Assembly (NCBI GenBank): GCA_030613025.1
Contig: JAUWMT010000002.1
Coordinates: forward strand, 19,945-83,944
Source of the DNA: Candidatus Cloacimonadota bacterium
Lineage (GTDB): Bacteria; Cloacimonadota; Cloacimonadia; JGIOTU-2
Direction of reading: 5' to 3'
Length of the DNA stretch: 64,000 nt
In this document: positions 4,207-55,467 of the stretch, piece after piece
How the letters are laid out: every line of letters begins with the position of its first letter
Numbering within the stretch: the first letter of the stretch is position 1
The notes under the pieces: model-generated
Database searches by the model: none
What the model was told of the DNA's origin: nothing
What the model saw: only the letters and a program-made list of their open reading frames with translations
Position numbers and translations under genes: made by a program

Positions 4207-6411
4207 TTACATGATTCCGAGGAACTGCTGAATTGCAGGTGAGAACGCAACGATCAGACCCGCAAAAACAATACTCACCATACTCATCAATTTAATAAGA
4301 ATATTAATTGAAGGACCGGCAGTATCTTTGAAAGGATCTCCGACAGTATCACCTACTACACATGCCTTATGAATTTCTGAGCCCTTACCGCCGTAGTGTC
4401 CGATCTCGACATATTTTTTTGCATTATCCCAAGCACCACCTGAGTTGTTCATCATAACTGCAAGAGTAAAACCGGTTGTCAGTCCACCGACGAGGAGTCC
4501 CATCACGCCGGCAACACCAAGAATTAGACCCACGATAATAGGAGTGAGAATGCCGAGAAGCGCCGGAGCGACCATTTCTTTCTGAGCACCTTTAGTTGAG
4601 ATGTACACGCATTTTGCATATTCGGGCTCAGCTGTACCTTCCAGAATACCGGGAATTTCTTTAAATTGACGGCGAACTTCCGCAACCATATCACCCGCCG
4701 CACGACCAACTGCTTTGAGCGTCATCGCTGCAAAGACAAAGGTAACCATTGCGCCAATAAAGATGCCGACAAGCGTTTTGGGATTCATAAGTGTAATATT
4801 ATAATGTTCAACAAAATTGGCAATAGAAGCAGTACTCAGATCAACACCTGCGATAAGTGTTTCTCCTGCTAACTTCAAACCAGTTCGAACTTCTTCAAGA
4901 TAAGCTGCGAGAAGTGCCATTGCAGTTAGCGCAGCAGAACCGATTGCAAATCCTTTTCCTGTTGCAGCAGTTGTATTTCCAACAGAGTCGAGGGCGTCTG
5001 TACGTTCCCGTACTTCTTTAGGAAGTTTGGACATCTCAGCATTGCCGCCTGCATTATCTGCAATAGGACCAAAGGCATCCATGGCAAGGGTAACACCGAG
5101 TGTAGAAAGCATACCTACTGCACCAAAACCAATACCGTACAATCCCATTTCCGGAATAAGGAAACCTTTACTCACCGCAAAGGCGGAAATGATAGCAATA
5201 GCAATAATAATAACAGGAGCACCTGTAGAGTTCATCCCAACTGCAAGTCCATCTATGATAACAGTTGCAGGTCCGTATTCAGCTTGTTCTACGATTCCTT
5301 TCGTTGGTTTAAAACTGTAAGAAGTGGAACGTTCCGTGAACACACCAATTAAAATACCCGCAAGCAATCCAATAACCGATGCAAAAAAGACGCCTAGTGA
5401 ATATTCCGGTGGAAGCATCCATTTTGTAACAAAGAATGCAACAATTGCAATGAGGATCGAGCTGCCGTACACGCCTTTGTTCAATGCGAACATGAGATCT
5501 TTTGTGGTGGCGTCCTCTTTTGTAGAAACCAGATAAATACCAAGAATTGAGAGAAATGCACCGATACCGGCAAGGATCATTGGGGCAGTGACAAAACGGA
5601 TTGCAATGTCCTGCAAAGCAGGTATTTTTATAGAGATCTGCGTGAAAGCAGCCATACCCAGTGCTGCTGTAGCCAATATCGAGCCGCAGTATGATTCATA
5701 AAGATCAGCCCCCATTCCTGCTACATCACCCACATTATCACCAACATTGTCTGCGATAGTGGCAGGATTTCGTGGGTCATCTTCCGGAATGCCGGCTTCG
5801 ATCTTTCCTACAAGGTCAGCTCCCACATCGGCAGCTTTGGTATAAATACCTCCACCAAGACGAGCAAAAAGAGCTTGGGTTGATGCACCCATTCCAAAGC
5901 TAAGCATCACAACTGTAATTGTATGAAGATCCATTTTGAAGGCATTCAGCACAAAGAACCATGCAGAGATATCAATTAGTGCAAGTCCCACAACTACAAG
6001 TCCCATCACACCACCGGCGCGGAACGCAATAGTTAAGCCCTTATTAAGACTTTGCCGTGCGCCCTGGGCGGTTCTGTTTGAGGCAAGTGTAGCTGTGTTC
6101 ATGCCGATCCAGCCAGCAAGTCCGCTGAAGAAACCACCGGTTAAAAATGCCCATGGAATAAGCGGGTGGAGTACTTTCAGCACCCAAGCCATAATGTTAA
6201 AAACTATAAAAGCAGCGATAAAAAATATTCCTACTCCTTTATACTGCTGTTTAAGATAAGCGAATGCTCCTTCTCGCACATACTTGGCGATTTTCTGCAT
6301 TTGCTCATTGCCGGGATCTTCTTTCTTTACGCTTCTATAAAGAATAAAGGCAAAGATCAGAGCGACGATAGCACCACTTGGAGCCACGATCCATAACAAA
6401 GGTATGTTCAT
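4207..6411 (-). CDS. hppA: membrane-bound proton/sodium-translocating pyrophosphatase
   Basis: 734 aa, about 16 TM helices, hallmark DNVGDNVGD and GGxxxNAKKYxE motifs. Confidence 0.95.
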
Positions 6412-6642
6412 GAAGAATCCTCCTGAAATTAATGTAAATATGACGACAAATTTTTAACCCCCTCTGCTTTGTCAAGGATTGGGAGGTCGGGATGAACAGA
6501 ATGGTGTGCAAGCCATGAATTTAGTACAAATGTCCTCATTTGCTTACGCAACTCACAAAACTCTTGACAACAAAATCCATTAAATTATTGGAATCACATA
6601 ACTTCGGTGGGCAATCGAAGGGAAAAGTTGGTTGGAGGAACC

Positions 6643-8859
6643 ATGATGAAAAAGGTCCTTATAATTTTTACTACTATACTCATGCTCTGTAGCGTGACCC
6701 ACGCAATGGATAATATTGATAAGCTACAAATGCTCAAAAAACTAAAAGATGTATCCTTCTCATCCATAGCACTTGAGAACGAACGCGACCAGGAAATTGC
6801 ACAAATATCTTCAACAAAAAAAGGTGAATTTGAAACTACTGAAATGTATAATAAAAGAATGCAGAACGTTGCAAAAGAAAAAGAAGATATCAAAACTGAA
6901 TATGCCCAGAAAATCGACTTTGCTCGAAGAAAATTCTATGAAAGGAAGCAGGAGCTCGAGCAGGAAATCCAGCAATTATTAAATGAGACAAAAGAGACTG
7001 TGACGAGTTCAATAACAGTTGGCAACTATGATGCCGATAAACAACAATTCAGTATTTATGTTTCAAAAGAAGGGAAAAATAACAGTATCTATGTGCCAAT
7101 TGCCCTTGCGAAACAGTTCAAAGATGATGCAAATCTTTTAACAGCAAAAGGAATCCGGAAGCTAAAAATCAATGAAACGTGGGATTACTATAACTGGAGC
7201 ATTGACTACAACAACCAGTCCTTTGCTTTCGGCACACAGACTAAAGAAATCGATCCTGTTTATGTAAAAGCAAAACCAACTGCACCACCAGACCTGAAAG
7301 TTGTATCTATTGATTTCAAGGATAATAATAACGATATGTTCATTGAGGGTGATGAATCTGGAACGCTCACTATCAAAATAAAGAATTCCGGGAAAGGATC
7401 TGCAGTCGGTATTTCTGCGAACCTAAAACCAGCGGAGAATTATTCATTCCTGGAACATAGAAACCAGAGATTTATTTCCGAGATAAAACCCGGCGAAGTT
7501 GATGAGATTGAATTCAATATCTATGCAAACAAAAGCACGCCAACTCAGGATTGCCGCTATACTATTACCTTTGATGAAATTAATGGCTTCTTCCCTGATC
7601 CGGTTACTTGTAGTTTTCAGACCAAGCAACTTGAACCGCCCATGTTCTTCGTAGAAAAAGGTATCGAAGATGCGAGCGGAAACTACAGCATAGAACAACA
7701 AGAGATCGTTACAGTTACACTTCGGCTTGCAAACTCGGGTGGTGCCGGAAAAGATGTTACGCTTAATATTAAGAACACCAGCAGTGATGTATCTTTTACA
7801 GGTGGTTCAAAAACAAGATTTACATGGGAGAAGATAGATAAGGGTGATTACAAAGATGTCAGTTTCGGATTTTATACAAACAAGAAAATTAAGGACGAGA
7901 TACCTCTCTCGGTTGTCGTTTCTGCAGAAGATTATTCCAGAGAATTTCCTTTGAATTTAAAGATAAAACAAAAAGAGATGTCTCCACAGGAGTTTGCATT
8001 TACAGGTATAGAAGGAGAGGATAAGGAATACAAAATACCCGGATTGGTCATTGATATTGAGCAGGATATTCCTCAAACGACAAAGATAAACAAAGATGCG
8101 GTCGCGGTTGTGATTGGAAATAGAAATTATAATAAAAGCACTGTACCTGCGGTTGAATTTGCCAATAGAGATGCTGCATATATGAAGAAATATATTACAA
8201 ATACTTTGGGCTATAGGGAAGGAAATATTATCTATGTGAATGATGCTACACAGGCGGATTTTAATAGTATATTCGGCACAAAAGAAAATTTTAAAGGGAA
8301 ATTGCACAACTATATCAAATCGGGACAATCAGATATATTTATCTATTACAGCGGACACGGCGCACCCGATCTTCAAAGCAAGCATGGCTACTTTGTGCCT
8401 GTTGATTGCGATCCTTCTCTTGTTGCATTAAACGGATATTCCCTCGATACCTTTTACGGCAATCTCTCAAAACTGGATTACAGTTCTCTTACTGTTGTGA
8501 TAGACGCATGTTTTAGCGGTTCATCAGAAAAGGGAATGCTCATTAAAGACATTTCGCCCGTATTTATAAATGTGAAGAATCCGGTTGTTTCAAAGAAGAA
8601 TACAACGGTCTTTACTTCAGCCACTGGTGAGCAGGTATCTTCCTGGTACAGGGATAAAAAACACTCGCTATTTTCCTACTATTTTATGAAAGGATTACAG
8701 GGAAATGCTGATGCAAATAATGATAAAAAGCTAACTGTTGAAGAGATGCAAATCTACATTGATGATAATGTGCCCTATCAAGCTAGAAGACAAAAAAACC
8801 TCGAACAAACTCCGCAGTTGATCGGTGATAAGAATAAAGTTATTGTTGAGTATGAATAA
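6643..8859 (+). CDS. secreted multi-domain protein with C-terminal caspase-like (peptidase C14) domain
   Basis: start moved to ATG 6643 (GGAGG RBS; signal peptide MMKKVLIIFTTILMLCSVTHA); N-terminal coiled coil, beta-rich middle, C-terminal His/Cys dyad region (YYSGHGAP ... VVIDACFSGS). Confidence 0.75.
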   Translation: MMKKVLIIFTTILMLCSVTHAMDNIDKLQMLKKLKDVSFSSIALENERDQEIAQISSTKKGEFETTEMYNKRMQNVAKEKEDIKTEYAQKIDFARRKFYERKQELEQEIQQLLNETKETVTSSITVGNYDADKQQFSIYVSKEGKNNSIYVPIALAKQFKDDANLLTAKGIRKLKINETWDYYNWSIDYNNQSFAFGTQTKEIDPVYVKAKPTAPPDLKVVSIDFKDNNNDMFIEGDESGTLTIKIKNSGKGSAVGISANLKPAENYSFLEHRNQRFISEIKPGEVDEIEFNIYANKSTPTQDCRYTITFDEINGFFPDPVTCSFQTKQLEPPMFFVEKGIEDASGNYSIEQQEIVTVTLRLANSGGAGKDVTLNIKNTSSDVSFTGGSKTRFTWEKIDKGDYKDVSFGFYTNKKIKDEIPLSVVVSAEDYSREFPLNLKIKQKEMSPQEFAFTGIEGEDKEYKIPGLVIDIEQDIPQTTKINKDAVAVVIGNRNYNKSTVPAVEFANRDAAYMKKYITNTLGYREGNIIYVNDATQADFNSIFGTKENFKGKLHNYIKSGQSDIFIYYSGHGAPDLQSKHGYFVPVDCDPSLVALNGYSLDTFYGNLSKLDYSSLTVVIDACFSGSSEKGMLIKDISPVFINVKNPVVSKKNTTVFTSATGEQVSSWYRDKKHSLFSYYFMKGLQGNADANNDKKLTVEEMQIYIDDNVPYQARRQKNLEQTPQLIGDKNKVIVEYE

Positions 8860-8866
8860 AAGTAAC

Positions 8867-9020
8867 GCAAGATTCCAATCTTGCTTTATCCGCTCTTTAC
8901 CAAGCCCTCTGCTTGGTAAAGCAGAAGCTGGGGCTTCCGGATTTAGTTCCGTTACCAATTTAGGAATTGGTAAAGAGAGGAAAGTGGAGAATTTGCGTAA
9001 AACAAGATTCCGATCTTGTT
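8867..9020. repeat. cluster of hairpin (REP-like) repeats downstream of the caspase-like gene
   Basis: gcaagattccaatcttgc (8867-8884); ctttaccaagc-cctct-gcttggtaaag (8895-8921); ttaccaattt-agg-aattggtaa (8952-8973); aacaagattccgatcttgtt (9001-9020). Confidence 0.7.
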
Positions 9021-9043
9021 ATTGATGAAATGAAGGAAACGAT

Positions 9044-10069
9044 ATGAAAAAATTATTACTTTTAATTGGCGCACTACTCATTGCAGTTCCCCTCTACACC
9101 CAGCAGATAACAAATGTGAACCATAAAATTGAGGAAGGCAGAATAGTAATTACATACGATTTAAGTGGAACAGATGAATATGAATACACCGTTTCTATTC
9201 AAGCAAAAAACAACGCGGGACAGCAAATTAAACCAGAAATTGTAGTTGGTGATATCGGTTATGTAGAACCAGGGAATAGTAAAACCATTTACTGGGAGCC
9301 ACAGCTAGAAGGACGAAACCTAGAAGGGTGGATTATCTCTCTTGATTTAAAGTATAAAGAAAATCCAATGGTCTTCGTCCAGGGTGGCACCTTCCAGATG
9401 GGTAGCAATAGTGGGGACAGTGACGAAAAGCCGGTTCACAGTGTAACGGTGAGTGATTTTTATATTGGGAAATATGAAGTAACCCAAACGGAATGGAAAG
9501 AAGTGATGGGTAATAATCCGAGTTTTAGGAAAGGCGATAATTTCCCTGTAGAAAAAGTGAGCTGGTATGATGCAGTAGAATTTTGTAATAAGAAAAGCAG
9601 AGCAAAAGGTCTCACACCTTGCTACACAGGTAGTGGGAAAAACATAACGTGCAATTTTAATGCAAATGGTTATCGCTTACCCACCGAGGCGGAATGGGAG
9701 TATGCAGCGAGAGGTGGTAATAAGTCGAAAGGATATACCTATTCCGGGAGTAATACTATTGGCAATGTCGCATGGTATAATAATAATTCGGGAATCACAA
9801 CCCATCCAGTTGGTAAGAAGCATCCCAATGAACTTGGTATTTATGACATGAGTGGCAATGTTTTTGAGTGGTGCTGGGATTGGAAAGGAAGTTATGGCAG
9901 CAGTTCACAAACAAATCCTACAGGTGCCAGTGACGGCTCTCGTCGTGTGCGTCGCGGCGGTAGCTTGTACAGCGTTGCCATGTACTGCCGGGTTGCTATT
10001 CGCCACCACAGCATTCCAGATCTCACACTCAACTACATAGGCTTCCGATTGCTCCGCGGTTCAAAGTAA
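9044..10069 (+). CDS. FGE-sulfatase (SUMF1/formylglycine-generating-enzyme-like) domain protein, secreted
   Basis: signal peptide; motifs typical of the family (YRLPTEAEWEYAARGG, YDMSGNVFEWCWD, RVRRGGS). Confidence 0.8.
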   Translation: MKKLLLLIGALLIAVPLYTQQITNVNHKIEEGRIVITYDLSGTDEYEYTVSIQAKNNAGQQIKPEIVVGDIGYVEPGNSKTIYWEPQLEGRNLEGWIISLDLKYKENPMVFVQGGTFQMGSNSGDSDEKPVHSVTVSDFYIGKYEVTQTEWKEVMGNNPSFRKGDNFPVEKVSWYDAVEFCNKKSRAKGLTPCYTGSGKNITCNFNANGYRLPTEAEWEYAARGGNKSKGYTYSGSNTIGNVAWYNNNSGITTHPVGKKHPNELGIYDMSGNVFEWCWDWKGSYGSSSQTNPTGASDGSRRVRRGGSLYSVAMYCRVAIRHHSIPDLTLNYIGFRLLRGSK

Positions 10070-10187
10070 TCCATCTTGTTTTGAGCAGAGAAATGCGAAC
10101 AAAAGTGAAACAGGGAGTGCTTTTGGAGTAAAACAACCGTGTTGTTTTATGCAAAATCACGGGTTTTGCACTCCAAAGTTAAAATAA

Positions 10188-10207
10188 AACAAGATTCCAA
10201 TCTTGTT
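10188..10207. repeat. hairpin repeat aacaagattccaatcttgtt (same family as 9001-9020)
   Basis: direct sequence match with one loop substitution. Confidence 0.7.
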
Positions 10208-10245
10208 TATAAAGGAAATATAATAAATTGATTTAAGGAAATTTT

Positions 10246-16941: not shown

Positions 16942-18756
16942 ATGTGGAATAATTATCTGTTTTTGCTTGTCGTTATCCCGATAATTGCAACTATTATTAA
17001 TCTTTTTGTACCAAAGATTATAAAGAAACTTATCACTCTTGCTTCTGTGATTTGGTCGCTGGTGCTGAGTATCAAAGTGTTCAGCGCATCTACTGTGAGC
17101 TTTTCTCTATTCGGCGTTACGTTATTTCAAACCGATGTTTTATCAAAATTCATTTTGCTTTTCATAAATATTCTCAGTTCAATAATTCTTATTTACTGTC
17201 TTAAAAATGTGAAAAAAGAATATGAAGGTAAATTCTTCCTGCTTTTCACGCTGACAGTCAGTTTCTGCAATGGCGTCGCAGTGAGTTCCAATATGATCGC
17301 TTTTATAATTTTCTGGGGACTTTCCGGGTTGCTCGTGTACCTGTTTGGTATTTTAAATTCTCCAAAAAGCTCAGAAAGTTCGATGAAAGCATTTATCATA
17401 ATAGGAACTTCAGACGTACTTCTTCTATTTGGTTTGGCTGTTATGTATGTTATGACACAGAATTCCAATCTCTACTTAACACAAATTACTCTTTCAAGTG
17501 TGTTGACCTACATTGCATTTTTCTGCCTGCTTCTTGCTGCATTCACAAAAGCAGGTGCTTTCCCGATGCATACCTGGCTTCCAGACTATGCAAAGGATGC
17601 ACCGATCGAAGCCGTGGCAGAACTTCCTGCTGCTATGGATAAGCTGCTTGGAATTTATCTTTTTGCACGTATAATGATGCATCTTTTTGTCTATCCCTTT
17701 GCGATCCAGGCGATCATCATGATAATAGGTGCGCTTACGATAATCTTTGCAGTGATGATGGCGCTTGTTCAGCATAATGGGCGCAAACTGCTGGGATATC
17801 ATGCTGTTAGTCAGGTTGGGTATATGGTATTGGGAATAGGAACAGGTAATCCAATTGGTATTATTGGCGGACTTTTCCACATGCTAAATAATGCAATATA
17901 CAAATCAAGCTTGTTCTTATCTCTTGGTTCTGTTGAAAAGAGGACAGGAACATCTGAACTCGAAAATCTTGGTGGTCTTGCCAGAAAGATGCCTCTTACC
18001 TTTATCGCTGCGCTGATAGGAGCGCTTTCAATATCGGGTATTCCACCATTGAATGGGTTCTTCTCAAAATGGATGGTCTATCAAGGTATTTTGAAAACCG
18101 CTTCACAGCATGGGGCAATCTGGCAGATCATACTAAATGTCTGCTTTGTTCTCGCTGTTTTTGGAAGTGCGCTTACCCTTGCCAGTTTTATTAAATTCAT
18201 ACATGCAATATTCTTGAGCAAATTACCCAAAAAATATGAGGGCGTGAAAGAGATCAGTTTCAATAACTGGTTTGCCAATCTTTTACTCGGCGCTCTTTGT
18301 GTGATTTTTGGCGTGCTCGTATTTGCAATTCCTGTGAAATTATTCTTACTGCCTATAATTGGCGCAGGATCTATTAAAACATTGCTTTTGGGATTTTATA
18401 GTTCAAAGATCATACTTTATTTCTTTGCTGCATCAATTCTGCTCGGTCTTATTATTTATCTTGTATTTAAAAAGATCCGCTTTGATGATGAATATGTCGG
18501 CACCTATCCGACAACTGAAGAGCATAGAGCTACAGGTGTTGAGTTCTATAATGAAATTTCTTCGATGAAACCCTTTAATAAGATCTACGAGTGGGCAAAC
18601 AAGAAGTATTTTGATATATATAAATGGGGAACAGTATTCTCCTTATGGCTTGGCGATGTATTCCACAAGTTACATTCGGGTTTGTTGCATACCTATGCGA
18701 TTTGGATGCTTGCCGGCTTGGTTGTTGTTACAATAATTTTATTGAGTGCAATTTAG
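16942..18756 (+). CDS. MrpA/NuoL-like antiporter-type membrane subunit (MbhH-like)
   Basis: 604 aa polytopic protein with NuoL/MrpA family motifs. Confidence 0.85.
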   Translation: MWNNYLFLLVVIPIIATIINLFVPKIIKKLITLASVIWSLVLSIKVFSASTVSFSLFGVTLFQTDVLSKFILLFINILSSIILIYCLKNVKKEYEGKFFLLFTLTVSFCNGVAVSSNMIAFIIFWGLSGLLVYLFGILNSPKSSESSMKAFIIIGTSDVLLLFGLAVMYVMTQNSNLYLTQITLSSVLTYIAFFCLLLAAFTKAGAFPMHTWLPDYAKDAPIEAVAELPAAMDKLLGIYLFARIMMHLFVYPFAIQAIIMIIGALTIIFAVMMALVQHNGRKLLGYHAVSQVGYMVLGIGTGNPIGIIGGLFHMLNNAIYKSSLFLSLGSVEKRTGTSELENLGGLARKMPLTFIAALIGALSISGIPPLNGFFSKWMVYQGILKTASQHGAIWQIILNVCFVLAVFGSALTLASFIKFIHAIFLSKLPKKYEGVKEISFNNWFANLLLGALCVIFGVLVFAIPVKLFLLPIIGAGSIKTLLLGFYSSKIILYFFAASILLGLIIYLVFKKIRFDDEYVGTYPTTEEHRATGVEFYNEISSMKPFNKIYEWANKKYFDIYKWGTVFSLWLGDVFHKLHSGLLHTYAIWMLAGLVVVTIILLSAI

Positions 18757-18771
18757 TTTAAGTATAATATT

Positions 18772-19026
18772 ATGAACCACGAAATACACCCGTCTCCATT
18801 GCATTACGCCGTTGCAGGCGAAAGAAGCGAAACAATAATTTTCAAAGAAAAAAGTTATGCAATTCAGGATGCTATTTTTGAATTGAGAAAAATGGGTTCA
18901 AATTTAATAAACGAAATTAATAAAATGAAGTTTTGTAGAAAATTTTTCTTAGACACCATTTTCGTGCCTTTCGCCTGTCACGACGGAGCGAAGCGTAGTC
19001 GGATGGTTAAAAGTGTTTATATGTAG
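18772..19026 (+). pseudogene. truncated GxxExxY-family (PD-(D/E)XK-like) mini-element remnant
   Basis: 84-aa ORF whose first ~30 codons (HEIHPSPLHYAVAG...IIFKEKSYAIQDAIFEL) parallel the intact paralogue at 23052; the rest diverges and the GxxExxY motif is lost. Confidence 0.4.
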
Positions 19027-19035
19027 GAGGCTTAA

Positions 19036-19575
19036 GTGCCAGTTGATATTTGGTTGTACTTTATTTTAGGATTCATGATAATCGGTTCGATTGCATGTCT
19101 GGAAATAAAGAATATACTTTCTTCGATCATCACCATTGGTGTGGTTGGATTGGGTTTGTCTTTAGCGTTCCTGTTTTTAGGAGCTCCGGATCTTGCTCTT
19201 GTCCAGTTCGTGTTCGAAATTCTCTGTGTTATCATTTTGATCCGTGCATTTGCCAAACGTTCTATTGAAGTTCGTGCGCTTCGCAGAGATGTGCCTGAAA
19301 CGATCATTGCTATCGTTATTCTGGTAAGCATTTTTGTGCTGAGCATTTTTGCATTCAAAGATCTGCCATCATTTGGAAAGCCAATTGTACGCGTTGCAGA
19401 GCGTTATCTCGCCCAAGCAGGAGTGGAAACAGGTTCTCAAAATATCGTCACCGCCGTTATTCTAAACTATAGAGTATATGATACATTGGGTGAGGTTACT
19501 GTGCTCTTTACCGCAATTTTAGGTGCATTTACCATATTACGTAAAACAGGGAGGAAGAAAAGACATGCAGAATAA
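19036..19575 (+). CDS. MrpB-like N-terminal membrane subunit (MbhD-like)
   Basis: GTG start after AGGAGG; 179 aa, polytopic, position and hydropathy match Mbh/Mrp small subunits. Confidence 0.6.
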   Translation: MPVDIWLYFILGFMIIGSIACLEIKNILSSIITIGVVGLGLSLAFLFLGAPDLALVQFVFEILCVIILIRAFAKRSIEVRALRRDVPETIIAIVILVSIFVLSIFAFKDLPSFGKPIVRVAERYLAQAGVETGSQNIVTAVILNYRVYDTLGEVTVLFTAILGAFTILRKTGRKKRHAE

Positions 19576-20014
19576 TTTTCCAAATGAAGGTATGTCCGTA
19601 ATTGTTAAAACAATTACCCGTTTTACTGTCTGGTTGATCTTCTTATATGGTCTGTATATTGTTATTCATGGTCATCTTTCTCCAGGTGGTGGTTTTGCAG
19701 GCGGCGTGATCGTTGCCCTTTCATTTGTTCACTTGACGCTGGCGTATGGTAAGAATTTCGTCATGGAGCGTGTGAATAAATTTGCCATGAACAGTTTGGA
19801 AGCTATTGCAGCGATCCTTTTTGTGCTCACCGGTCTGATCGGCTTATATGTTATGGGCAATTTCCTCGCAAACTTTATGGGAATCGGTAAATTGTACACG
19901 CTTCTCAGTGCCGGCTACATACCGATGCTGAATATCTTTATTTGCGTGAAGGTCGGCATGGGATTGTATCTTGTGTTCTACTATTTAGCCAGTTTTAAAC
20001 CCAAGGAAGGATAA
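19565..20014 (+). CDS. MnhB-domain membrane subunit (MbhE-like)
   Basis: HGHLSPGGGFAGGVI motif of MnhB domain; start set at ATG 19565 (GGGAGG RBS). Confidence 0.7.
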   Translation: MQNNFPNEGMSVIVKTITRFTVWLIFLYGLYIVIHGHLSPGGGFAGGVIVALSFVHLTLAYGKNFVMERVNKFAMNSLEAIAAILFVLTGLIGLYVMGNFLANFMGIGKLYTLLSAGYIPMLNIFICVKVGMGLYLVFYYLASFKPKEG

Positions 20015-20018
20015 GAAT

Positions 20019-20363
20019 ATGATATTATATATTATGTGCTTTTTCCTCTTTTTGGTCGGCGTTTATGGCGCGATCACAAAAAGAGATCTGATTAAGATAA
20101 TACTTGCAATTGGCATCATGGGTTATTCCGTAAACCTGTTCCTTGTTTTGCTTGCCTATCGCACAGGTGCGCTGGTTCCCATCCTCAAAGAAGGACTTAA
20201 TATTCCAGCCAGCATGATGGTCGATCCTATTCCTCAAGCTCTTGTACTTACATCTATTGTTATTGAACTTGGTATCACTGCACTCATGGCTGCGCTTGCG
20301 ATCAGGATCTATCAAAAATATGATACCTTTGATATTACGAAGATCAGGAGATTACAAGGATGA
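20019..20363 (+). CDS. MrpC/NuoK-like membrane subunit (MbhG-like)
   Basis: 114 aa, 3 TM, NuoK-like. Confidence 0.7.
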   Translation: MILYIMCFFLFLVGVYGAITKRDLIKIILAIGIMGYSVNLFLVLLAYRTGALVPILKEGLNIPASMMVDPIPQALVLTSIVIELGITALMAALAIRIYQKYDTFDITKIRRLQG

Positions 20364-21865
20364 TATTATCACAGTTTATTTTCGTTCCCTTACTCGCTGC
20401 ATTTCTCATCGTTCTCCTTGCCCGTAAAAAAGAAAATTTTGCTGCTGCTATTGCCCTTGCTGCCTGTGCCTGGATTTTAATCGTTTCATTCATTGCGTTC
20501 TTTAAGCTCTCTTCCCACGGAGGTATGATCCTAAACAATACAAGTGGATGGAAAATACCTTATACGATCAGTTTGATCTTGGATAATCTGTCTGCCTTTA
20601 TGCTGATAGTAGTGAATCTTGTTGCCTTTCTTTCAGCATTCTATGCGATCCAGTACATAAATCATTTTACGGGGAAGTGGAATTTCTTTGCGCTTTTTAT
20701 GCTGATGGTAACCGGAATGAATGGAGTGATACTTACAGGTGACTTCTTCAACTTATATGTTTTCATGGAGATAGCGCTCTTTTCTGCCTATGCTCTTGTT
20801 GCCTTTGGTACGGAATCTGAAGAACTGGAGGCAGCATTTAAATATGCCACAATGGGTGCGATAACTTCCACAATGATACTGTTTGGTATTGGAATTCTTT
20901 ATAGTTATACTTCCACACTTACAATGGCGGATGTCGGACTTCAGCTGAGAAGTGCCGGAGCTCCGAAACTGATTTTCCTCGTTTATGGTTTGTTCATTGC
21001 AGGTTTTGGTTTGAAAACTGCACTCGTTCCCTTCCATGCGTGGCTTCCTGATGCCCATCCATCAGCCCCTGCACCGATCTCGGCAATGCTTTCCGGCGTA
21101 CTTATCAAAACACTCGGAGTATATGCGCTTGTGCGAATTTTCTTTAATGTATTCGGAGCGCCAACCGTTGTGTTACAGATACTTATGCTGCTTGGAACTC
21201 TCTCGATCGTAATTGGAGGTTTTCTTTCAATTGTGCAATGGGATTTCAAACGATTGCTGGGATTTAGCAGTGTCAGCCAGATCGGATATGTGGTGATAGG
21301 TTTTGCACTTGGCACACCCCTCGGTATTCTTGGCGGCATTCTTCATCTTTTCTATCATGCGATCTTCAAATCCTTGCTCTTCCTGAACAGCGGAGCAGTT
21401 GAATATGCGACAGATACAAGGGACCTGCGACAACTGGGTGGTCTTTCAAAAGAACTCAAAGTTACTTCGGCAACTAATATGGTTGGAACATTATCAATAT
21501 CTGGAATTCCACCTTTTAATGGCTTCTTCAGCAAGCTCATCATTATCATTGCCTGCATTTCTGCGGGTCAGATCGTTATAGGTATTATTGCTGCACTGGT
21601 GAGTATTGTGACCCTTGCATACTTCCTGAAAGTTCAAAAGCACGCATTTTATGGTAAAAAGGGATCTGCAAAAGTGCTTGAAAAAGTTCCTATTGCAATG
21701 AAAACTGTTATGATCATTCTTGCTGCACTGTGTTTATTGAGTTCAGTTATTATGATCCCATCAATTAGAAAAAATTATTTGAATCCTATAGTGGACACCG
21801 TTATGGGAAGAACTTCATATATCGATAAAATCGAGCCCTATCTTGATAATGGGAGTGTTAAATGA
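20360..21865 (+). CDS. MrpD/NuoM-like antiporter-type membrane subunit
   Basis: 501 aa polytopic, NuoM/MrpD family motifs (WLPDAH, FFNGF). Confidence 0.85.
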   Translation: MILSQFIFVPLLAAFLIVLLARKKENFAAAIALAACAWILIVSFIAFFKLSSHGGMILNNTSGWKIPYTISLILDNLSAFMLIVVNLVAFLSAFYAIQYINHFTGKWNFFALFMLMVTGMNGVILTGDFFNLYVFMEIALFSAYALVAFGTESEELEAAFKYATMGAITSTMILFGIGILYSYTSTLTMADVGLQLRSAGAPKLIFLVYGLFIAGFGLKTALVPFHAWLPDAHPSAPAPISAMLSGVLIKTLGVYALVRIFFNVFGAPTVVLQILMLLGTLSIVIGGFLSIVQWDFKRLLGFSSVSQIGYVVIGFALGTPLGILGGILHLFYHAIFKSLLFLNSGAVEYATDTRDLRQLGGLSKELKVTSATNMVGTLSISGIPPFNGFFSKLIIIIACISAGQIVIGIIAALVSIVTLAYFLKVQKHAFYGKKGSAKVLEKVPIAMKTVMIILAALCLLSSVIMIPSIRKNYLNPIVDTVMGRTSYIDKIEPYLDNGSVK

Positions 21866-22365
21866 AGACAGAAACAAAAAGCAGGATCGTTGTCTTTTTT
21901 CTATCCTTATTAGTTTGGATATTGATAACGATGGTTTTCAGTATTCCCTCTTTGATAGCAGGCGTTATCATGGCACTGATCACTGCGATCTTTGCCGGAG
22001 AGATGCTGATCATAACTGAAAGAAAATTTCATTTGAAACGAGTATGGTACACGATTGAATATCTCGTAAAGTTCATATGGGAACTGTTCAAGGCAAATTT
22101 TAACGTTGCATACATTGTTATCCACCCTCTTCTTCCCATAAAGCCCGGGATCGTGAAAGTTAAAACAAAGCTGAAAAGAGATTCTGCGCTTACCATGCTT
22201 GCAAATTCAATAACCTTAACTCCCGGAACACTAACGGTAGATATCGATGTTGATAACCAGATTTTATACGTGCACTGGATCGATGTGAAATTTACCGATA
22301 TAGAGCAAACCACTGAATTTATAGGTGGTCGATTTGAAAAACTACTCGAGGAGATTTTTGAATGA
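21862..22365 (+). CDS. MrpE-like subunit (MbhA-like)
   Basis: 167 aa, 2 N-terminal TM, operon position. Confidence 0.55.
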   Translation: MKTETKSRIVVFFLSLLVWILITMVFSIPSLIAGVIMALITAIFAGEMLIITERKFHLKRVWYTIEYLVKFIWELFKANFNVAYIVIHPLLPIKPGIVKVKTKLKRDSALTMLANSITLTPGTLTVDIDVDNQILYVHWIDVKFTDIEQTTEFIGGRFEKLLEEIFE

Positions 22366-22703
22366 GAGTTTTTAGATGGTTCATCGGTTTAATTATTATT
22401 GCAGCATTCCTTGTGATAAATTTTGTTGTGTTTACAAACATTCCTTTCAACTATAAGTTGATCAATGTGCTCCTTTTCTGCTCGCTTTTCATCCTGATAC
22501 GAGTCGTGAAAGGACCTTCAGTTGCAGACCGTATTGTTGCGATTGATATTCTTGGAATTTTGATCATCGGAATATGTGCGATCCTTGCTATTGCATTAGA
22601 CCGTTCATATTTTATAGATATTGGAATTGCCTGGGGTCTTCAAAGTTTCATAGGAGCTTTGGCGCTTGCAAAATTCTTAGAAGGGAGGTCGCTCGATGCC
22701 TGA
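22362..22703 (+). CDS. MrpF-like subunit (MbhB-like)
   Basis: 113 aa, 3 TM, overlapping start/stop. Confidence 0.55.
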   Translation: MRVFRWFIGLIIIAAFLVINFVVFTNIPFNYKLINVLLFCSLFILIRVVKGPSVADRIVAIDILGILIIGICAILAIALDRSYFIDIGIAWGLQSFIGALALAKFLEGRSLDA

Positions 22704-23046
22704 TTTAGCAATTAATCAAATTATCGGATATGTCATTATTTGTATTGGTGTTATTTTTGATCTTTTTGGAGTGCTCGGTCTTGTACGTCTTCCTGATGTA
22801 TATAATCGTCTTCAGGCAGCAACGAAAAGTGTGACTTTTGGATCTGCCGGGATACTGTTCGGAGTATTCGTTTACTCTGGTTTCACGTCAATGGGCTTCA
22901 AGGCAATTCTCTGTGCAATATTCATACTGTTGACCTCACCTGTTTCTGCACATGCAATTGCAAAAGCTGCTCACTCAGCAGGAATCAAGCTGACTGACAA
23001 AACAGTTATTGATCTATATCAAGAAGATAAAGAATTACAGAAATAA
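22696..23046 (+). CDS. MrpG-like subunit (MbhC-like)
   Basis: 116 aa, 3 TM. Confidence 0.55.
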   Translation: MPDLAINQIIGYVIICIGVIFDLFGVLGLVRLPDVYNRLQAATKSVTFGSAGILFGVFVYSGFTSMGFKAILCAIFILLTSPVSAHAIAKAAHSAGIKLTDKTVIDLYQEDKELQK

Positions 23047-23051
23047 CAGAT

Positions 23052-23483
23052 ATGAGCCACGAAAACACCAGTCTTCACTACGTTACGCCGTGGCAGGCAC
23101 AAAAGCACACGAAAAGGGATATTATATTTAGAGAGGAATGTTATAAAATCATTGACTGTGCCTTTACCGTTTGGAAGTTATTAGGATATGGTTTTTTAGA
23201 AAAGGTTTATAAGAATGGCTTATTTATCGAGTTAATTGATAAAGGTTTTCAGGCGGAAAAGGAATATCCAATAAAAGTATTCTATAAAGGGAAAGTGATC
23301 GGAGAATATTTTGCAGATATTGTTGTTGATAGGAAAATAATCTTAGAATTAAAAGCAGAAGAAAAATTAAATCTTATTCATCAAGCACAAATTATCAACT
23401 ATCTAAAAGCCTCTAAAATAAAAGTTGGTTTATTAATAAATTATGGCAAAAAGAAATGTGAGTTTAAAAGATTTATATATTAA
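23052..23483 (+). CDS. GxxExxY-family protein (PD-(D/E)XK nuclease-like), inserted inside the hydrogenase operon
   Basis: 143 aa with GFLEKVY (GxxExxY) motif and C-terminal ...IINYLKASKIKVGLLINYG typical of the family; weak RBS; interrupts otherwise coupled operon. Confidence 0.8.
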   Translation: MSHENTSLHYVTPWQAQKHTKRDIIFREECYKIIDCAFTVWKLLGYGFLEKVYKNGLFIELIDKGFQAEKEYPIKVFYKGKVIGEYFADIVVDRKIILELKAEEKLNLIHQAQIINYLKASKIKVGLLINYGKKKCEFKRFIY

Positions 23484-23537
23484 TAATTTTTGTGTCCTTT
23501 TGTGTGATTTTGTGGCTAAATATATCAGGAGAATAAA

Positions 23538-24149
23538 ATGATCATTCCAAAACTTCGTGAATTGGGTGAAGCTATTGTATCACTTTTTTCAAAACCAATA
23601 ACAAGTAAATATCCTTTTACAAAAAAACCCTATGAGCCGGTAAAACAGTTCAAGGGAAAACCAAAATATGATGAAGAAGAATGTGTAGGGTGTGGTTCGT
23701 GTGCTCAGGTATGTCCTGCCGGTGCAATCGATCTTACCGATATACCCGAAGAAGGAAAACGCATATTACAAGTCAATTACACGAATTGCATTTACTGCGG
23801 ACAGTGTGAAGAACACTGTATTACTCAAAAAGGCATCAAGCTTTCTAATGAGTACATAACTGCTACTTTCAGTCCGGACAAAGAAGCAAGCTTCATGAAA
23901 ATTGAAAAAAAGCTTATTGTCTGCCCTATTTGTGGTACAAAGATAGCCACTGAAGATCACATGAACTGGCTAATCGAGAAGATGGGACCAAAAGCTTATG
24001 GAAATCCCAACCTCCTCGCATTCATTCAACTTCGCTATCAGGATCTGCCGGACTCAAAGATAAAGAAAGATACAATACGTAGAGAAGATTATTATAAATT
24101 AATGTGTCCGAGTTGCAGGCACCAGGTTGTTGTAAAAGATGCATTCTGA
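23538..24149 (+). CDS. NuoI/MbhN-like 2x[4Fe-4S] subunit with extra C-terminal Zn-ribbon-like extension
   Basis: CVGCGSCAQVCP and CIYCGQCEEHC clusters; C-terminal CPICG...CPSCRH. Confidence 0.8.
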   Translation: MIIPKLRELGEAIVSLFSKPITSKYPFTKKPYEPVKQFKGKPKYDEEECVGCGSCAQVCPAGAIDLTDIPEEGKRILQVNYTNCIYCGQCEEHCITQKGIKLSNEYITATFSPDKEASFMKIEKKLIVCPICGTKIATEDHMNWLIEKMGPKAYGNPNLLAFIQLRYQDLPDSKIKKDTIRREDYYKLMCPSCRHQVVVKDAF

Positions 24150-31089: not shown

Positions 31090-31189
31090 TTGTGGTGCGT
31101 GTGGCGAAAAGAGAGAATAATTAATCAAATTGGGTAGAGACTGGTTTATCCAGTCGAAATAGATAAGCGAAAAGGATTATTAGTAATAA

Positions 31190-31218
31190 ATCGTCACCAA
31201 GTTCAACTTAGTAACGAG
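31190..31218. repeat. 29-nt near-palindromic repeat, copy 1 (atcgtcaccaagttcaacttagtaacgag)
   Basis: seen directly; nested palindrome with one stem mismatch. Confidence 0.85.
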
Positions 31219-31234
31219 AAAAAAAATTATCACT

Positions 31235-32161: not shown

Positions 32162-32303
32162 TTTACCGCCTGTATCTCGGATAAGGTTTTTCTACCTAAA
32201 AGGAGCTTTAGAGAATTCTAGAAATTTAATGCTAACCAATAATGTATAGGTTATAAAAATCTAACAAGTAAATTTTCAATTTCCCTGTCAAATATTATAG
32301 AAA

Positions 32304-32332
32304 CTCGTTACCAAGTTCAACTTCGTAACGAG
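32304..32332. repeat. 29-nt palindromic repeat, copy 2 (ctcgttaccaagttcaacttcgtaacgag)
   Basis: perfect nested palindrome CTCGTTAC-c-AAGTT-c-AACTT-c-GTAACGAG; shares 5' flank ttatagaaa with copy 4. Confidence 0.85.
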
Positions 32333-32364
32333 TACAACAATTTATAGAATAACAAATTTGTTTA

Positions 32365-33029: not shown

Positions 33030-33109
33030 AAGATCATTTTTTATGTCAATTTATTATTTTTTGATGGATCAAGCAGTTTAAAAAATAGTTAAATATTGGA
33101 TTAAAAAAA

Positions 33110-33138
33110 ATCGTCACCAAGTACAACTTAGTGACGAG
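33110..33138. repeat. 29-nt palindromic repeat, copy 3 (atcgtcaccaagtacaacttagtgacgag)
   Basis: perfect 7-bp stem; on the minus strand it is followed by T8, so it probably also terminates the rnf operon. Confidence 0.85.
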
Positions 33139-33153
33139 AATATTTATAGAAAC

Positions 33154-33179
33154 TCGTTACGGAGTTGAACTTCGTAACG
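33154..33179. repeat. palindromic repeat, copy 4 (ctcgttacggagttgaacttcgtaacg)
   Basis: same element, 10 nt from copy 3, shares the ttatagaaa 5' flank with copy 2. Confidence 0.8.
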
Positions 33180-33191
33180 CAACAATATTTA

Positions 33192-53945: not shown

Positions 53946-53990
53946 TCCTTTTTGAATTGACACATAAGTCCTTTGCACAAGGACTGGTGT
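53946..53990. promoter_or_regulatory. long imperfect palindrome TTGACAC-cAGTCCTT-gtgca-AAGGACT-tat-GTGTCAA just upstream of the Zn-ribbon gene
   Basis: seen directly; overlaps the expected promoter; candidate operator. Confidence 0.4.
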
Positions 53991-54552
53991 CAAGTTTTTC
54001 ATCGGGGATGAAATTATTGAATATTTTTAAAAAAAATAGGACACAGATGAACCCCGTGAAATCCTGCAAAGCAAGAACAGTAAAGCTCTTATTTCACAGG
54101 GTGAACGCTGATGGAGCTGATCGGCACAGATAAAAACATTGTTAAAACAAAAAAAGGTTAATTATTTATCGGTGAAAATTCTGGATTCCCGATCTGGTCG
54201 GGAATGACATTTTTGGTTTTGTTGGTGGTATATGAGATTAATAAATTAACAATCCAAAAAAAGAAAATTGTCATTCTGAGAGTAACGAAATGAAACGAAG
54301 AATCTCGCAAAAACGTTGATTTATCCTACAGGGAGATCCGTCGTCGTGAGTTAAAAATACCATCCTCGAGGATGACAATTGTTTTTATTTGAGGTAGCCG
54401 ACTTAGTCGTCTTAATTGCTCAATGCTTTTGCATCGAGACGCTTGATGTATTCCACAATGAAAGAATTATCTTGTCATAAGCTTGTCACGGCGTAGAGTA
54501 ACGGAGACGGATCGAAGAGCTTGTGATAAGTAATTCTTGGGCACATTACAAC

Positions 54553-55467
54553 TTAAGACATGCTCTCCGACTCGCCTTCATCCCGAGAATCGGGGCTACG
54601 GCGCAACAAACATGTCTCAAGTTCTTGAATCCATTTTATCTTTTCTTCGTCTGAAATATTTATATCATTATTAATACTGTTTATTGCAATCTCAATTAAC
54701 TTTTTGGCTCTTTTAAAATTATTTTTAATATCAATTTCCCATATAGCCAAAGCTTTCATTACTTCAGGTCTTTTACTTTTTTCAAATAGTTTTAAAATTT
54801 CTAATAAATTTTGTACCATTTCATCATCTTTTCCTGCATTTGCTGCTGAAATAATTAATGAACTAACTGTGCATCTAATGGTTCTAATACTTTTATTAAT
54901 CTGATCTTTATTTATTTTTAGGTGAATAGGATATTTCCTGATATATTCTTGCTTTATACTCGGAATATTAGATATTATTCCAAAATCTCTGAATTGTATT
55001 AATGTTGTTGTTATCTTTATTATATCGTGAAATTCCTCAAACCATTTTTCCTTATTTATTTCAATAACTATATCTGACTCAATTCTCTTTGTTTTTTTTG
55101 GCAAACCATTATACATTATATATTTTGTAATATTAGCTATATAAATCTTTTTTACTTTGCTCTCTTCGTTTTTTCTTACGTAGAAAGCAAAAACTGGTAC
55201 AGGTTGTCTGTTCCAATATTCTAGATGTCTTTTTTCGAATTTACATGTTGCTTTCTTATTTTTTTTTATCTTTATTTGTTCGCCACTTTTAACTTGCACC
55301 CAAAAATGCAAAAATCCTTTCCAATCTTCAATTGTCTCACAATATAAATCAACACCAATGTCAGTACCTTCAGTTACTTGTCTTACTAGACAATTCTCGC
55401 TTAACAAATGTGCAATTAGCGTATTTCCATAATTTCCAATTATCCTATTTTTATCTATTGTTGTCAT
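54553..55467 (-). CDS. standalone restriction-endonuclease-fold protein (DUF4365-like N-terminal domain)
   Basis: N-terminal GNYGNTLIAHLL...DIGVDLYCE...FWVQVKSG pattern; C-terminal tail (RRSPDSRDEGESESMS) reads through a palindromic repeat remnant. Confidence 0.45.
   Translation of the reverse strand: MTTIDKNRIIGNYGNTLIAHLLSENCLVRQVTEGTDIGVDLYCETIEDWKGFLHFWVQVKSGEQIKIKKNKKATCKFEKRHLEYWNRQPVPVFAFYVRKNEESKVKKIYIANITKYIMYNGLPKKTKRIESDIVIEINKEKWFEEFHDIIKITTTLIQFRDFGIISNIPSIKQEYIRKYPIHLKINKDQINKSIRTIRCTVSSLIISAANAGKDDEMVQNLLEILKLFEKSKRPEVMKALAIWEIDIKNNFKRAKKLIEIAINSINNDINISDEEKIKWIQELETCLLRRSPDSRDEGESESMS

Follow-up and report, generated by a model that had tools for sequence, protein, structure and literature searches.

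A short foldback element carrying a gene of the GxxExxY nuclease family is inserted in an Mbh/Mrp-type hydrogenase operon of a Candidatus Cloacimonadota bacterium. The operon lies within a stretch of 64,000 nucleotides (nt) of contig JAUWMT010000002.1 (assembly GCA_030613025.1), referred to here as the window and numbered from its first letter. The complete element, designated element B, is ~470 bp long (23048-23527, forward strand) and consists of two arms and the nuclease gene at the junction of the mnhG and nuoI-like genes. According to our analysis, it is probably a selfish foldback element with the build of the 23S rRNA intervening sequences (IVSs), in which a predicted minimal RecB/Cas4-like nuclease replaces the four-helix-bundle protein and a junction within a protein operon serves as the site. 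The anatomy of the element and its mobility are, in our view, established with high confidence; the part played by the nuclease is proposed more cautiously.

Two Insertions in the Hydrogenase Operon

The genes of the operon overlap or abut at every junction except two, as an earlier note made from the sequence alone had pointed out. At one of them, an open reading frame (ORF) for 143 amino acids (aa; 23052-23483, forward strand) is preceded by an MnhG-like gene (22696-23046) and followed by the gene of a NuoI/HycF-like ferredoxin (23538-24149). This ORF matches TIGR04256 GxxExxY (E 1e-39, 135.6 bits, cutoff 35) and PF13366 PDDEXK_3 (E 1e-38, 132.4 bits, cutoff 22) and has the motif GFLEKVY at aa 47-53; the description of an intact GxxExxY gene between mrpG-like and NuoI-like genes was therefore correct. 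The second interruption reported in that note, an 84-aa ORF (18772-19026, forward strand) with an MbhH/NuoL-like gene (16942-18756) before it and an MbhD/E gene (19036-19575) after it, was also recovered. It runs through a second element, element A, and has neither a nuclease core nor a family match.

With the NuoI-like protein as query, we gathered 22 orthologous loci and mapped the operon genes on each; all close matches to the window operon were metagenome-assembled genomes (MAGs) or single-cell genomes of Cloacimonadota. Five relatives (L003, L004, L005, L007, and L008), with flanking proteins 83-96% identical to those of the window, have both junctions empty: the mnhG stop overlaps the nuoI-like start (GAACAGAAATGATT), and the spacing between mbhH and mbhDE is 20 nt. 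The more distant L011, L015, and L016 are likewise empty, so that element B is missing from all eight, and the junction of element A is empty also in the distant L016. The mnhG|nuoI-like junction holds a GxxExxY gene in L006, L012, L014, and L018, and the mbhH|mbhDE junction is occupied in L014 and L018. In the host trees (MnhD and NuoI), the window is sister to L018, within a shallow clade that also contains empty genomes.

Because both junctions are empty in five close relatives, the two ORFs are insertions and not hydrogenase subunits, and the insertion claim of the earlier note, once checked by aligning orthologous operons, was upheld. Their orientation along the operon and their tight packing inside it could suggest integral or accessory subunits, or regulators, of the hydrogenase. 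They are missing, however, from the five close and three distant, otherwise collinear, orthologous operons; relatives from the GxxExxY family also occur in unrelated operons, and the 84-aa ORF has no family match, which leaves the subunit interpretation with next to no probability. The insertion of the 143-aa gene is no assembly artefact: an independent assembly (L001) contains the identical gene together with the upstream operon genes, and orthologous copies are present in the single-cell genome L014 and in several MAGs.

Structure of the Complete Element

Element B is bounded by terminal inverted repeats, the feature that defines the element and that the earlier note had missed. The left repeat (23055-23117) is composed of AGCCACGAAAACAC, a 30-nt insert and ACAAAAGCACACGAAAAGG, and contains the first codons of the ORF; the right repeat is TTTTTGTGTCCTTTTGTGTGATTTTGTGGCT (23487-23517). 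The repeats pair as 23055-23068/23504-23517 and 23095-23114/23498-23517. Each ~31-bp arm consists of three tandem 9-10-bp CAC(G/A)AAA units, those of the left arm being AGCCACGAAAA-CACACAAAAG-CACACGAAAAGG, and in L014, L018, and L028 the left arm is uninterrupted. A construct of the two arms only folds with a z score of -5.1, and a weak outer inverted repeat, GATAT/ATATC, is also present. No further arms of the CACGAAA type were detected beyond the two junctions in ~400 kb comprising the window and the Cloacimonadota loci. Apart from a tRNA, nothing in Rfam matched the whole window (searched at gathering thresholds), the region 18700-23600 (searched at E<=1), or 20 related loci.

The element is closely fitted to the genes on both sides. 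At the outer edge of the left arm, 5 nt past the mnhG stop, is the ATG (23052), and aa 1-23 of the protein are the left arm and its nested repeat in translation. The N-terminal extension (MSHENT...QKHTKR) is regarded as a translated arm because the hidden Markov model (HMM) of the family covers aa 29-142 only and because aa 1-19 have a predicted local distance difference test score (pLDDT) below 50. On the 3' side of the right arm, an A/T spacer is followed by the Shine-Dalgarno sequence (SD) CAGGAG (23526-23531) of the nuoI-like gene. Family relatives at two other junctions begin with ATGAGCCAC, the TGA of which is the stop codon of the upstream host gene, and in relatives, too, an SD and an ATG for the next host gene follow the right arm. 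Since the SD for the next gene is placed after the right arm, the operon stays intact. Element B points the same way as the operon. A consensus scan of 18500-23700 gave 25 promoter-like sites against 17 +/- 3.7 expected, none of them positioned at the elements, and three terminator-like sites against 3.7 expected, none inside the elements. Expression of the nuclease probably depends on read-through transcription and coupled translation.

Transfer Between Lineages

The comparison with L012 shows movement of the element between lineages. DNA identity to the window is 65-70% for mnhE, mnhF, mnhG, and nuoI and 94.7% for the nuclease core, and the synonymous divergence (dS) between the two elements is 0.07. 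In 30-nt windows, identity to L012 is 90-100% across element B except in the nested pieces, and the block of high identity ends sharply at ~23519, with 63% just past the right arm; host DNA in this comparison is 43-86% identical, and the last 30 nt of mnhG are 83% identical. Relative to L014 and L018, the host genes of the window are 82-92% identical and the element is 77-79% identical, with the L014 and L018 elements 96% alike. This divergence means that two element lineages occupy one junction in sister genomes. Presence and absence thus vary at a single junction, and the phylogeny of the element disagrees with that of the host. The suggestion of repeated activity or a site preference, made in the earlier note, gained support from these two lineages at one junction together with the near-identical copy in a distant lineage.

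Elements were found at no fewer than four distinct junctions in Cloacimonadota. An aminotransferase gene and a small ORF flank one relative (P0003, 82% aa identity), and another (P0010, 66% aa identity) is flanked by genes for a heptosyltransferase (GT9) and a deaminase; the two run in the direction of the adjacent genes, show ATGA overlaps with them, and have the same ends.

No target-site duplication was apparent in the flanks of 25 elements, where the longest common substring was 4.36 nt, against 4.47 nt in controls. The MnhG tails of filled alleles end in ..EDKELQK*, like those of the distant L012 and L013, and the empty alleles of the same clade end in ..KSEEQK*. This pattern is compatible with co-transfer of a short flank, although so short a tract cannot decide the matter.

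Some further observations concern insertions at these operon junctions. A perfect 16-nt direct repeat, GGAGTCAAAAATGAAG, flanks an ORF-less element in L009 (8476-8491 and 8672-8687); it corresponds to the SD and the ATGA stop/start overlap of mnhD/mnhE and is the sole exception with respect to duplication. In L010 (2259-2881), an inserted HicB/HicA toxin-antitoxin pair (PF15919, E 1.5e-11; PF07927, E 3.3e-13) lies between the nuoI-like and hycI-like genes. Junctions of the orthologous operons thus attract several kinds of selfish modules.

The GxxExxY Nuclease

An alignment of 30 sequences was used to read conservation. The invariant or near-invariant residues are G45, G47-F-L-E50, Y53, D89, E99-x-K101, H110, and Q113...N116-Y117; the 143-aa protein has E99-L-K101 and Q113-I-I-N-Y117 as its catalytic-motif stretches. 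The conserved E, D, ExK, and QxxxY are what we take to be the motifs of RecB-family nucleases. In the AlphaFold2 model, the core of the protein has a pLDDT above 95. The top Foldseek match was Cas4 SSO0001 (4ic1; E 1.8e-5, template-modelling score 0.53 on the query), followed by lambda exonuclease, MGME1, and AdnAB; weaker matches included Hjc, tRNA-splicing endonucleases, PA endonuclease, and Rai1. Judging from this model, the GxxExxY protein would have a minimal RecB/Cas4-like nuclease fold.

Cas4 and the RecB-family nucleases are accordingly the best structural match, with the E, D, ExK, and QxxxY residues common to both. In contrast to Cas4, the GxxExxY protein is about half the size, its alignment lacks the conserved four-cysteine Fe-S set, and its gene has hydrogenase genes as neighbours with no cas context. 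Among six Cloacimonadota copies of the nuclease, the ratio of nonsynonymous to synonymous substitution rates (dN/dS) is 0.05-0.18, so the protein is functional and under purifying selection.

Within the nuclease ORF of L012 (about 4935-4955) and L024 (about 5083-5100), an in-frame palindrome, TCCCGAT(A/G)T(G/A)TCGGGA, swaps the codons for TVW for those of IP(I/M)(C/Y)RE. The two carriers are not each other's closest relatives, which suggests that a minute hairpin has been inserted repeatedly at a single codon position.

Element A and Other Nuclease-Less Derivatives

Element A (about 18764-19023, forward strand) occupies the mbhH|mbhDE junction. A stretch of 249 nt folds end to end (dG -32.9 kcal/mol, z -2.7), with CAGGCGAAAG paired with CTTTCGCCTG and the ends pairing mutually; the right arm (18956-19008) includes a mirrored, related nested piece of ~30 nt (about 18972-19002). 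With both arms retained and no nuclease core, element A is most aptly viewed as a form of the same foldback element that has lost its nuclease.

The earlier note had regarded the 84-aa ORF as a truncated GxxExxY copy. This ORF gave no HMM match to TIGR04256 or PF13366 at E<=0.01 and no BLASTP alignment with the 143-aa protein, and hhalign aligned the two over 24 columns (aa 17-40 against aa 19-42) with an E of 0.0056 and a probability of 6.6%. At most one helix (aa 17-40) of the ORF resembles the GxxExxY N-terminus, and its homology to the GxxExxY protein is not demonstrable by any of the three methods. Element A is placed in the same element family because of its arms and not because of its protein; membership in the family therefore stands, and truncation at the protein level is unproven. 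The 84-aa frame is open in L014 too, with the same TAG 9 nt before the mbhDE start, and it may be kept open for translational coupling.

Nuclease-less units also occur elsewhere. In L014 and L018, ORF-less arm-loop-arm units of ~100 nt adjoin the nuclease gene (z -6.7 and -4.1), and an ORF-less element in L009 is of the same sort as element A.

A Nested Mini-Repeat

The starts of the two ORFs, which had been described as homologous over ~100 nt, are clearly similar at the DNA level over ~50 nt (18772-18820 and 23052-23098). This shared segment is a composite of the first arm unit (ATGARCCACGAAA.ACAC) and a 30-nt piece, GTCTYC...TACGCC...GCAGG. The homology is thus real, at half the proposed length, and it does not represent conserved coding sequence.

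A 16-nt core, TTACGCCGTKGCAGGC, is matched four times in the window when up to 3 mismatches are allowed (0.28 expected), and full copies of the mini-repeat number four, against 0.4 expected. In element B, the mini-repeat CAGTCTTCACTACGTTACGCCGTGGCAGGC (23069-23098, forward strand) follows the first unit of the left arm and keeps the frame; its counterpart in the left arm of element A (18789-18818, forward strand) corresponds to a 30-column gap in the alignment with L014. A third copy (2714-2740) lies on the reverse strand after the first units of an arm (2700-2766) made of CACAGAG-type units; this arm belongs to a third element, which has no ORF, and an inverted half-copy is located at 2666-2685. 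The fourth (54482-54508, reverse strand) is nested in an arm of CACAAGC units in a repeat-rich intergenic region. All four copies are nested after the first unit of an arm, whatever the unit type (CACGAAA twice, CACAGAG, and CACAAGC). The mini-repeat is missing from the otherwise orthologous elements of L014, L018, L028, and L024, and L012 has a different 33-nt piece at its spot. The insertion keeps the reading frame, giving nucleases of 143 aa with the mini-repeat and 133 aa without it.

Other repeats were observed in the window. The intergenic region of ~570 nt at 53980-54553 (reverse strand) is dense in repeat fragments, including the mini-repeat, CCCGATTCTCGGG hairpins, and an tcgttactctcagaatgaca motif, and it adjoins a DUF4365 gene (54553-55467; PF14280, E 1e-13). 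One family of palindromic repeats, TCGTCACCAAGTT..AACTTAGTAACGA, occurs at 31188-31228, 32302-32342, 33108-33148, and 33151-33191, and a second, GCAAGATTCCAATCTTGC, occurs at 8859-8886, 8994-9021, and 10181-10208; both are possibly elements resembling repetitive extragenic palindromes (REPs) or terminators.

Generality Within the GxxExxY Family

A survey of the PD-(D/E)XK superfamily published in 2012 gives the function of GxxExxY/PDDEXK_3 as "Unknown" (PMC3424549). Our profile search retrieved 33,366 representatives of 50%-identity clusters at E<=0.001 and 12,869 at E<=1e-10, and 7,984 matches were obtained among the 8,000 candidates scored. Of 80 metagenomic GxxExxY loci gathered, 65 had at least 130 nt on either side, and an inverted repeat between upstream and downstream DNA (score >=30) was present in 38 of them (58%); the corresponding values in the controls were 4.1% for cross-locus pairs and 0% for shuffles. 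As in the window, the arms of the metagenomic loci are built of tandem 8-10-nt units with a periodicity of 9-10 nt. The units vary by lineage (CACAGAC, CACGGAT, CACGAAT, CGCAGAT, CGCAAAT, AACGAT, and AGGGGAT, among others), and the left and right arms stay complementary. The gene is inside the hairpin in 30 of 40 arm pairs and between two complete hairpins, as in L018, in the other 10. With crude gene calling, 43 of 49 upstream neighbours shared the strand of the GxxExxY gene, as did both neighbours in 26 of 33 cases. Among the 80 loci, a search for other cargo within periodic inverted repeats gave two candidates, L044 and L031, with no convincing ORF.

There was no match in 50,697 phage records, and the eight matches in 72,556 plasmid records were mostly to megaplasmids; searches with PADLOC and PHROGs gave no match for the GxxExxY protein. 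On these counts and negatives, a phage, plasmid, or defence origin was rejected. Literature searches by family name, by Pfam name, and by nuclease plus inverted repeat retrieved no description of the element. The statement in the earlier note that operon insertions of this family had been noted previously could not be traced in the searchable literature.

Two features of the family were noted in passing. Many proteins of 250-280 aa (P0011, P0121-P0124, and others) have two GxxExxY domains, probably because a single ORF spans tandem elements or because the domains are truly fused. A subfamily with the N-terminus MDINDITY (L031, L035, L037, L039, L042, L055, and L091) has additional conserved flanks, GTCATCGCTTCGCGAAAA on the upstream side of the ORF and TTGCCCGAAGGGCA on the downstream side, each placed between arm and ORF.

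Comparison With rRNA Intervening Sequences and Other Known Systems

The closest architectural likeness is to the ORF-bearing IVSs of 23S rRNA in Coxiella and Leptospira. The Coxiella IVS is a selfish element of 428 nt with a stem of 28-bp terminal inverted repeats and an ORF in the loop, preceded by three tandem GACAGAT heptamers; RNase III cuts within the stem, and the ORF has been hypothesized to have once provided mobility (PMC4990558). The IVS and the GxxExxY element are similar in size (~430-480 nt) and share terminal inverted repeats of ~28-31 bp that form a stem, a single loop ORF of ~120 aa, a sporadic distribution, and horizontal transfer. Their arms are likewise made of short tandem units, GACAGAT in the Coxiella IVS and CAC(A/G)GAT or CACGAAA in the GxxExxY elements. 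They differ in cargo, which is a PD-(D/E)XK nuclease in the GxxExxY element and S23p in the IVS, and in site, a junction of protein genes in one case and helix 45 or 25 of the 23S rRNA in the other. Furthermore, the GxxExxY ORF starts inside the arm and seems to be both translated and selected for, in contrast to Coxiella S23p, which is regarded as silent and decaying.

The operon of L009 brings the two kinds of cargo together. At its mnhB|mnhC junction, a four-helix-bundle gene (TIGR02436, E 9e-25) lies between arms of GAAACTTGA units, and its mnhG|nuoI junction holds an ORF-less hairpin of the same unit type. TIGR02436/PF05635 is the "23S rRNA intervening sequence protein." Homologues of the L009 protein with 72-84% identity occur in Desulfonema, Kiritimatiellia, Chlamydiota, and wastewater metagenomes; at the Desulfonema, Kiritimatiellia, and wastewater loci, they are co-oriented in operon junctions and have arms of GAAACTKG units.

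Several details of these four-helix-bundle loci may be added. L009 has insertions at four junctions of the same operon (6074-6595, 8423-8712, 4800-5111, and 9884-10001), comprising the TIGR02436 gene, an ORF-less element of the AGCCACGAAT type, and two ORF-less hairpins of the GAAACT type, which carry small GC-rich nested hairpins. Near-identical four-helix-bundle elements lie upstream of a Thioredoxin_3 gene in L111/L113 and in L115/L119, and the upstream genes of the two pairs differ, being a cation-efflux gene in one pair and an ArsP permease gene in the other. In L111, two arm types are nested, with TGGAATG units outside GAAACTGG units.

Free-standing homing endonuclease genes, such as the seg and mob genes of T-even phages, and the PD-(D/E)XK homing endonuclease I-Ssp6803I are a second point of comparison. 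As in these systems, a small nuclease gene sits between conserved genes, is variably present among close relatives, recurs at the same site in divergent genomes with a phylogeny discordant with that of the host, and leaves no target-site duplication, the flanks being maybe co-transferred. Unlike them, the GxxExxY element has terminal inverted repeats, ORF-less derivatives, and several unrelated sites; it is not phage-borne, and GxxExxY is not a recognized homing-endonuclease family. Pairs of MITEs (miniature inverted-repeat transposable elements) and autonomous transposons, as well as the REP system with its RAYT transposase, are similar in having inverted-repeat ends, an intergenic position, and ORF-less hairpins near ORF-bearing copies; REP/RAYT and IS200/IS605 also leave no target-site duplication. 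The GxxExxY element differs from MITEs and REP-RAYT in the lack of a DDE, HUH, serine, or tyrosine transposase and in arms that are tandem arrays of 8-10-nt units. Its sole protein, in contrast to those of transposons, is a hydrolytic nuclease, incapable of strand transfer.

Possible Mechanism and Alternative Explanations

We propose that the nuclease serves the element by cutting DNA and that host recombination would repair the breaks, so that an empty junction or ORF-less hairpin receives a copy of the element; alternatively, repair would restore the element after its loss, in a homing-like retention. As DNA, the arms would serve for recognition and/or as homology arms; as part of the transcript they would probably form a ~30-bp stem cleavable by RNase III, by analogy with the rRNA IVSs, and the element would ride on host transcription. 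A homing-like model of this kind fits the absent target duplication, the recurrence at one site, the sharp right-hand boundary of identity, and the possibly co-transferred left flank. We favour nuclease-driven mobility over the alternatives below, though tentatively and at odds a little short of even.

A number of points weigh against it. The activity and target of the nuclease are putative, as is its role in mobility, and a ~120-aa protein without a separate DNA-binding domain could not alone recognize several unrelated sites. Similar arms flank an unrelated cargo, the four-helix-bundle protein, and the GACAGAT of Coxiella resembles the units of the GxxExxY type, so the arms may not be specific to the nuclease. 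The shared flank that might have been co-converted extends over no more than ~27 nt, part of which codes for a conserved tail, and recurrence at the same site could be ordinary homologous replacement of a resident element. Given no phage and few plasmid matches, the vehicle of transfer between lineages is not evident. Finally, the arm mismatches of 40 arm pairs comprised 39 G.U on the sense strand and 38 antisense equivalents; this lack of asymmetry gives no support for selection on an RNA stem, and the symmetry of the arms looks, from these sequences, like a property of the DNA.

Two other explanations merit consideration, of which the first is the stronger competitor. The hairpin of tandem units may itself be the vehicle, moved by an unlinked enzyme or by template switching during replication, with GxxExxY as a passenger kept for some other benefit to host or element, such as an addiction-like nuclease, defence, or repair. 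The occurrence of TIGR02436 as unrelated cargo in the same architecture, the likeness of the Coxiella GACAGAT units to CACAGAT units of the GxxExxY type, the ORF-less hairpins that often adjoin ORF-bearing ones, the shifts in arm length with unit number (~10 units per arm in L110), and the small size of a protein without a DNA-binding domain all speak for it. No candidate mobilizing enzyme, however, was linked to any locus examined; PADLOC and PHROGs gave no match, and the elements are in housekeeping operons and not in defence islands. Strong purifying selection despite gain and loss between sister genomes also fits a function for the element better than one for the host, and we therefore view the passenger role as possible and rather unlikely. 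Alternatively, the element might work mainly on RNA, with the stem excised from the mRNA by RNase III or by GxxExxY acting as a ribonuclease, so that the insertion becomes phenotypically silent or the stoichiometry of the two operon halves is tuned, and with DNA mobility secondary. Excision by RNase III has been shown for the analogous IVS stem (PMC4990558), the arms would yield a stem of ~30 bp, and PD-(D/E)XK folds include RNA endonucleases, which are among the weaker Foldseek matches. Against this are the absence of G.U versus C.A asymmetry in the 40 arm pairs, the lack of an Rfam match, and the fact that the best structural neighbours are DNA nucleases; horizontal transfer and new insertions would, moreover, be left unexplained, and this explanation appears improbable.

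A broader view is that the GxxExxY elements, the four-helix-bundle elements, and the rRNA IVSs form one large superfamily, new to the literature, in which ORF-less hairpins provide a phenotypically silent "safe harbour" and the minimal RecB-like nuclease homes into hairpins or gene junctions, with the arms providing recognition and homology. We consider this unification doubtful and mention it for what it would imply.

Implications

Our analysis has direct consequences for annotation, as repeat arms in translation, not protein domains, account for the N-terminal extensions of GxxExxY proteins and for small ORFs like that of 84 aa. It also illustrates how a selfish element can lodge among closely coupled operon genes by bringing with it the signals for stop, start, and ribosome binding. 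Together with its relatives, the window constitutes a natural experiment that combines empty sites, one junction held by two element lineages, a distant host with an almost identical copy, and nuclease-less derivatives. A defined element, its arms, and an empty site are now at hand for assays, providing a testable handle on the very large GxxExxY family and on the origin and mobility of IVSs, a question that goes back to about 1990. If the superfamily interpretation is true, these elements would parallel, in bacteria, the homing-endonuclease genes that reside in self-splicing introns and would represent a new, transposase-free way of DNA movement.

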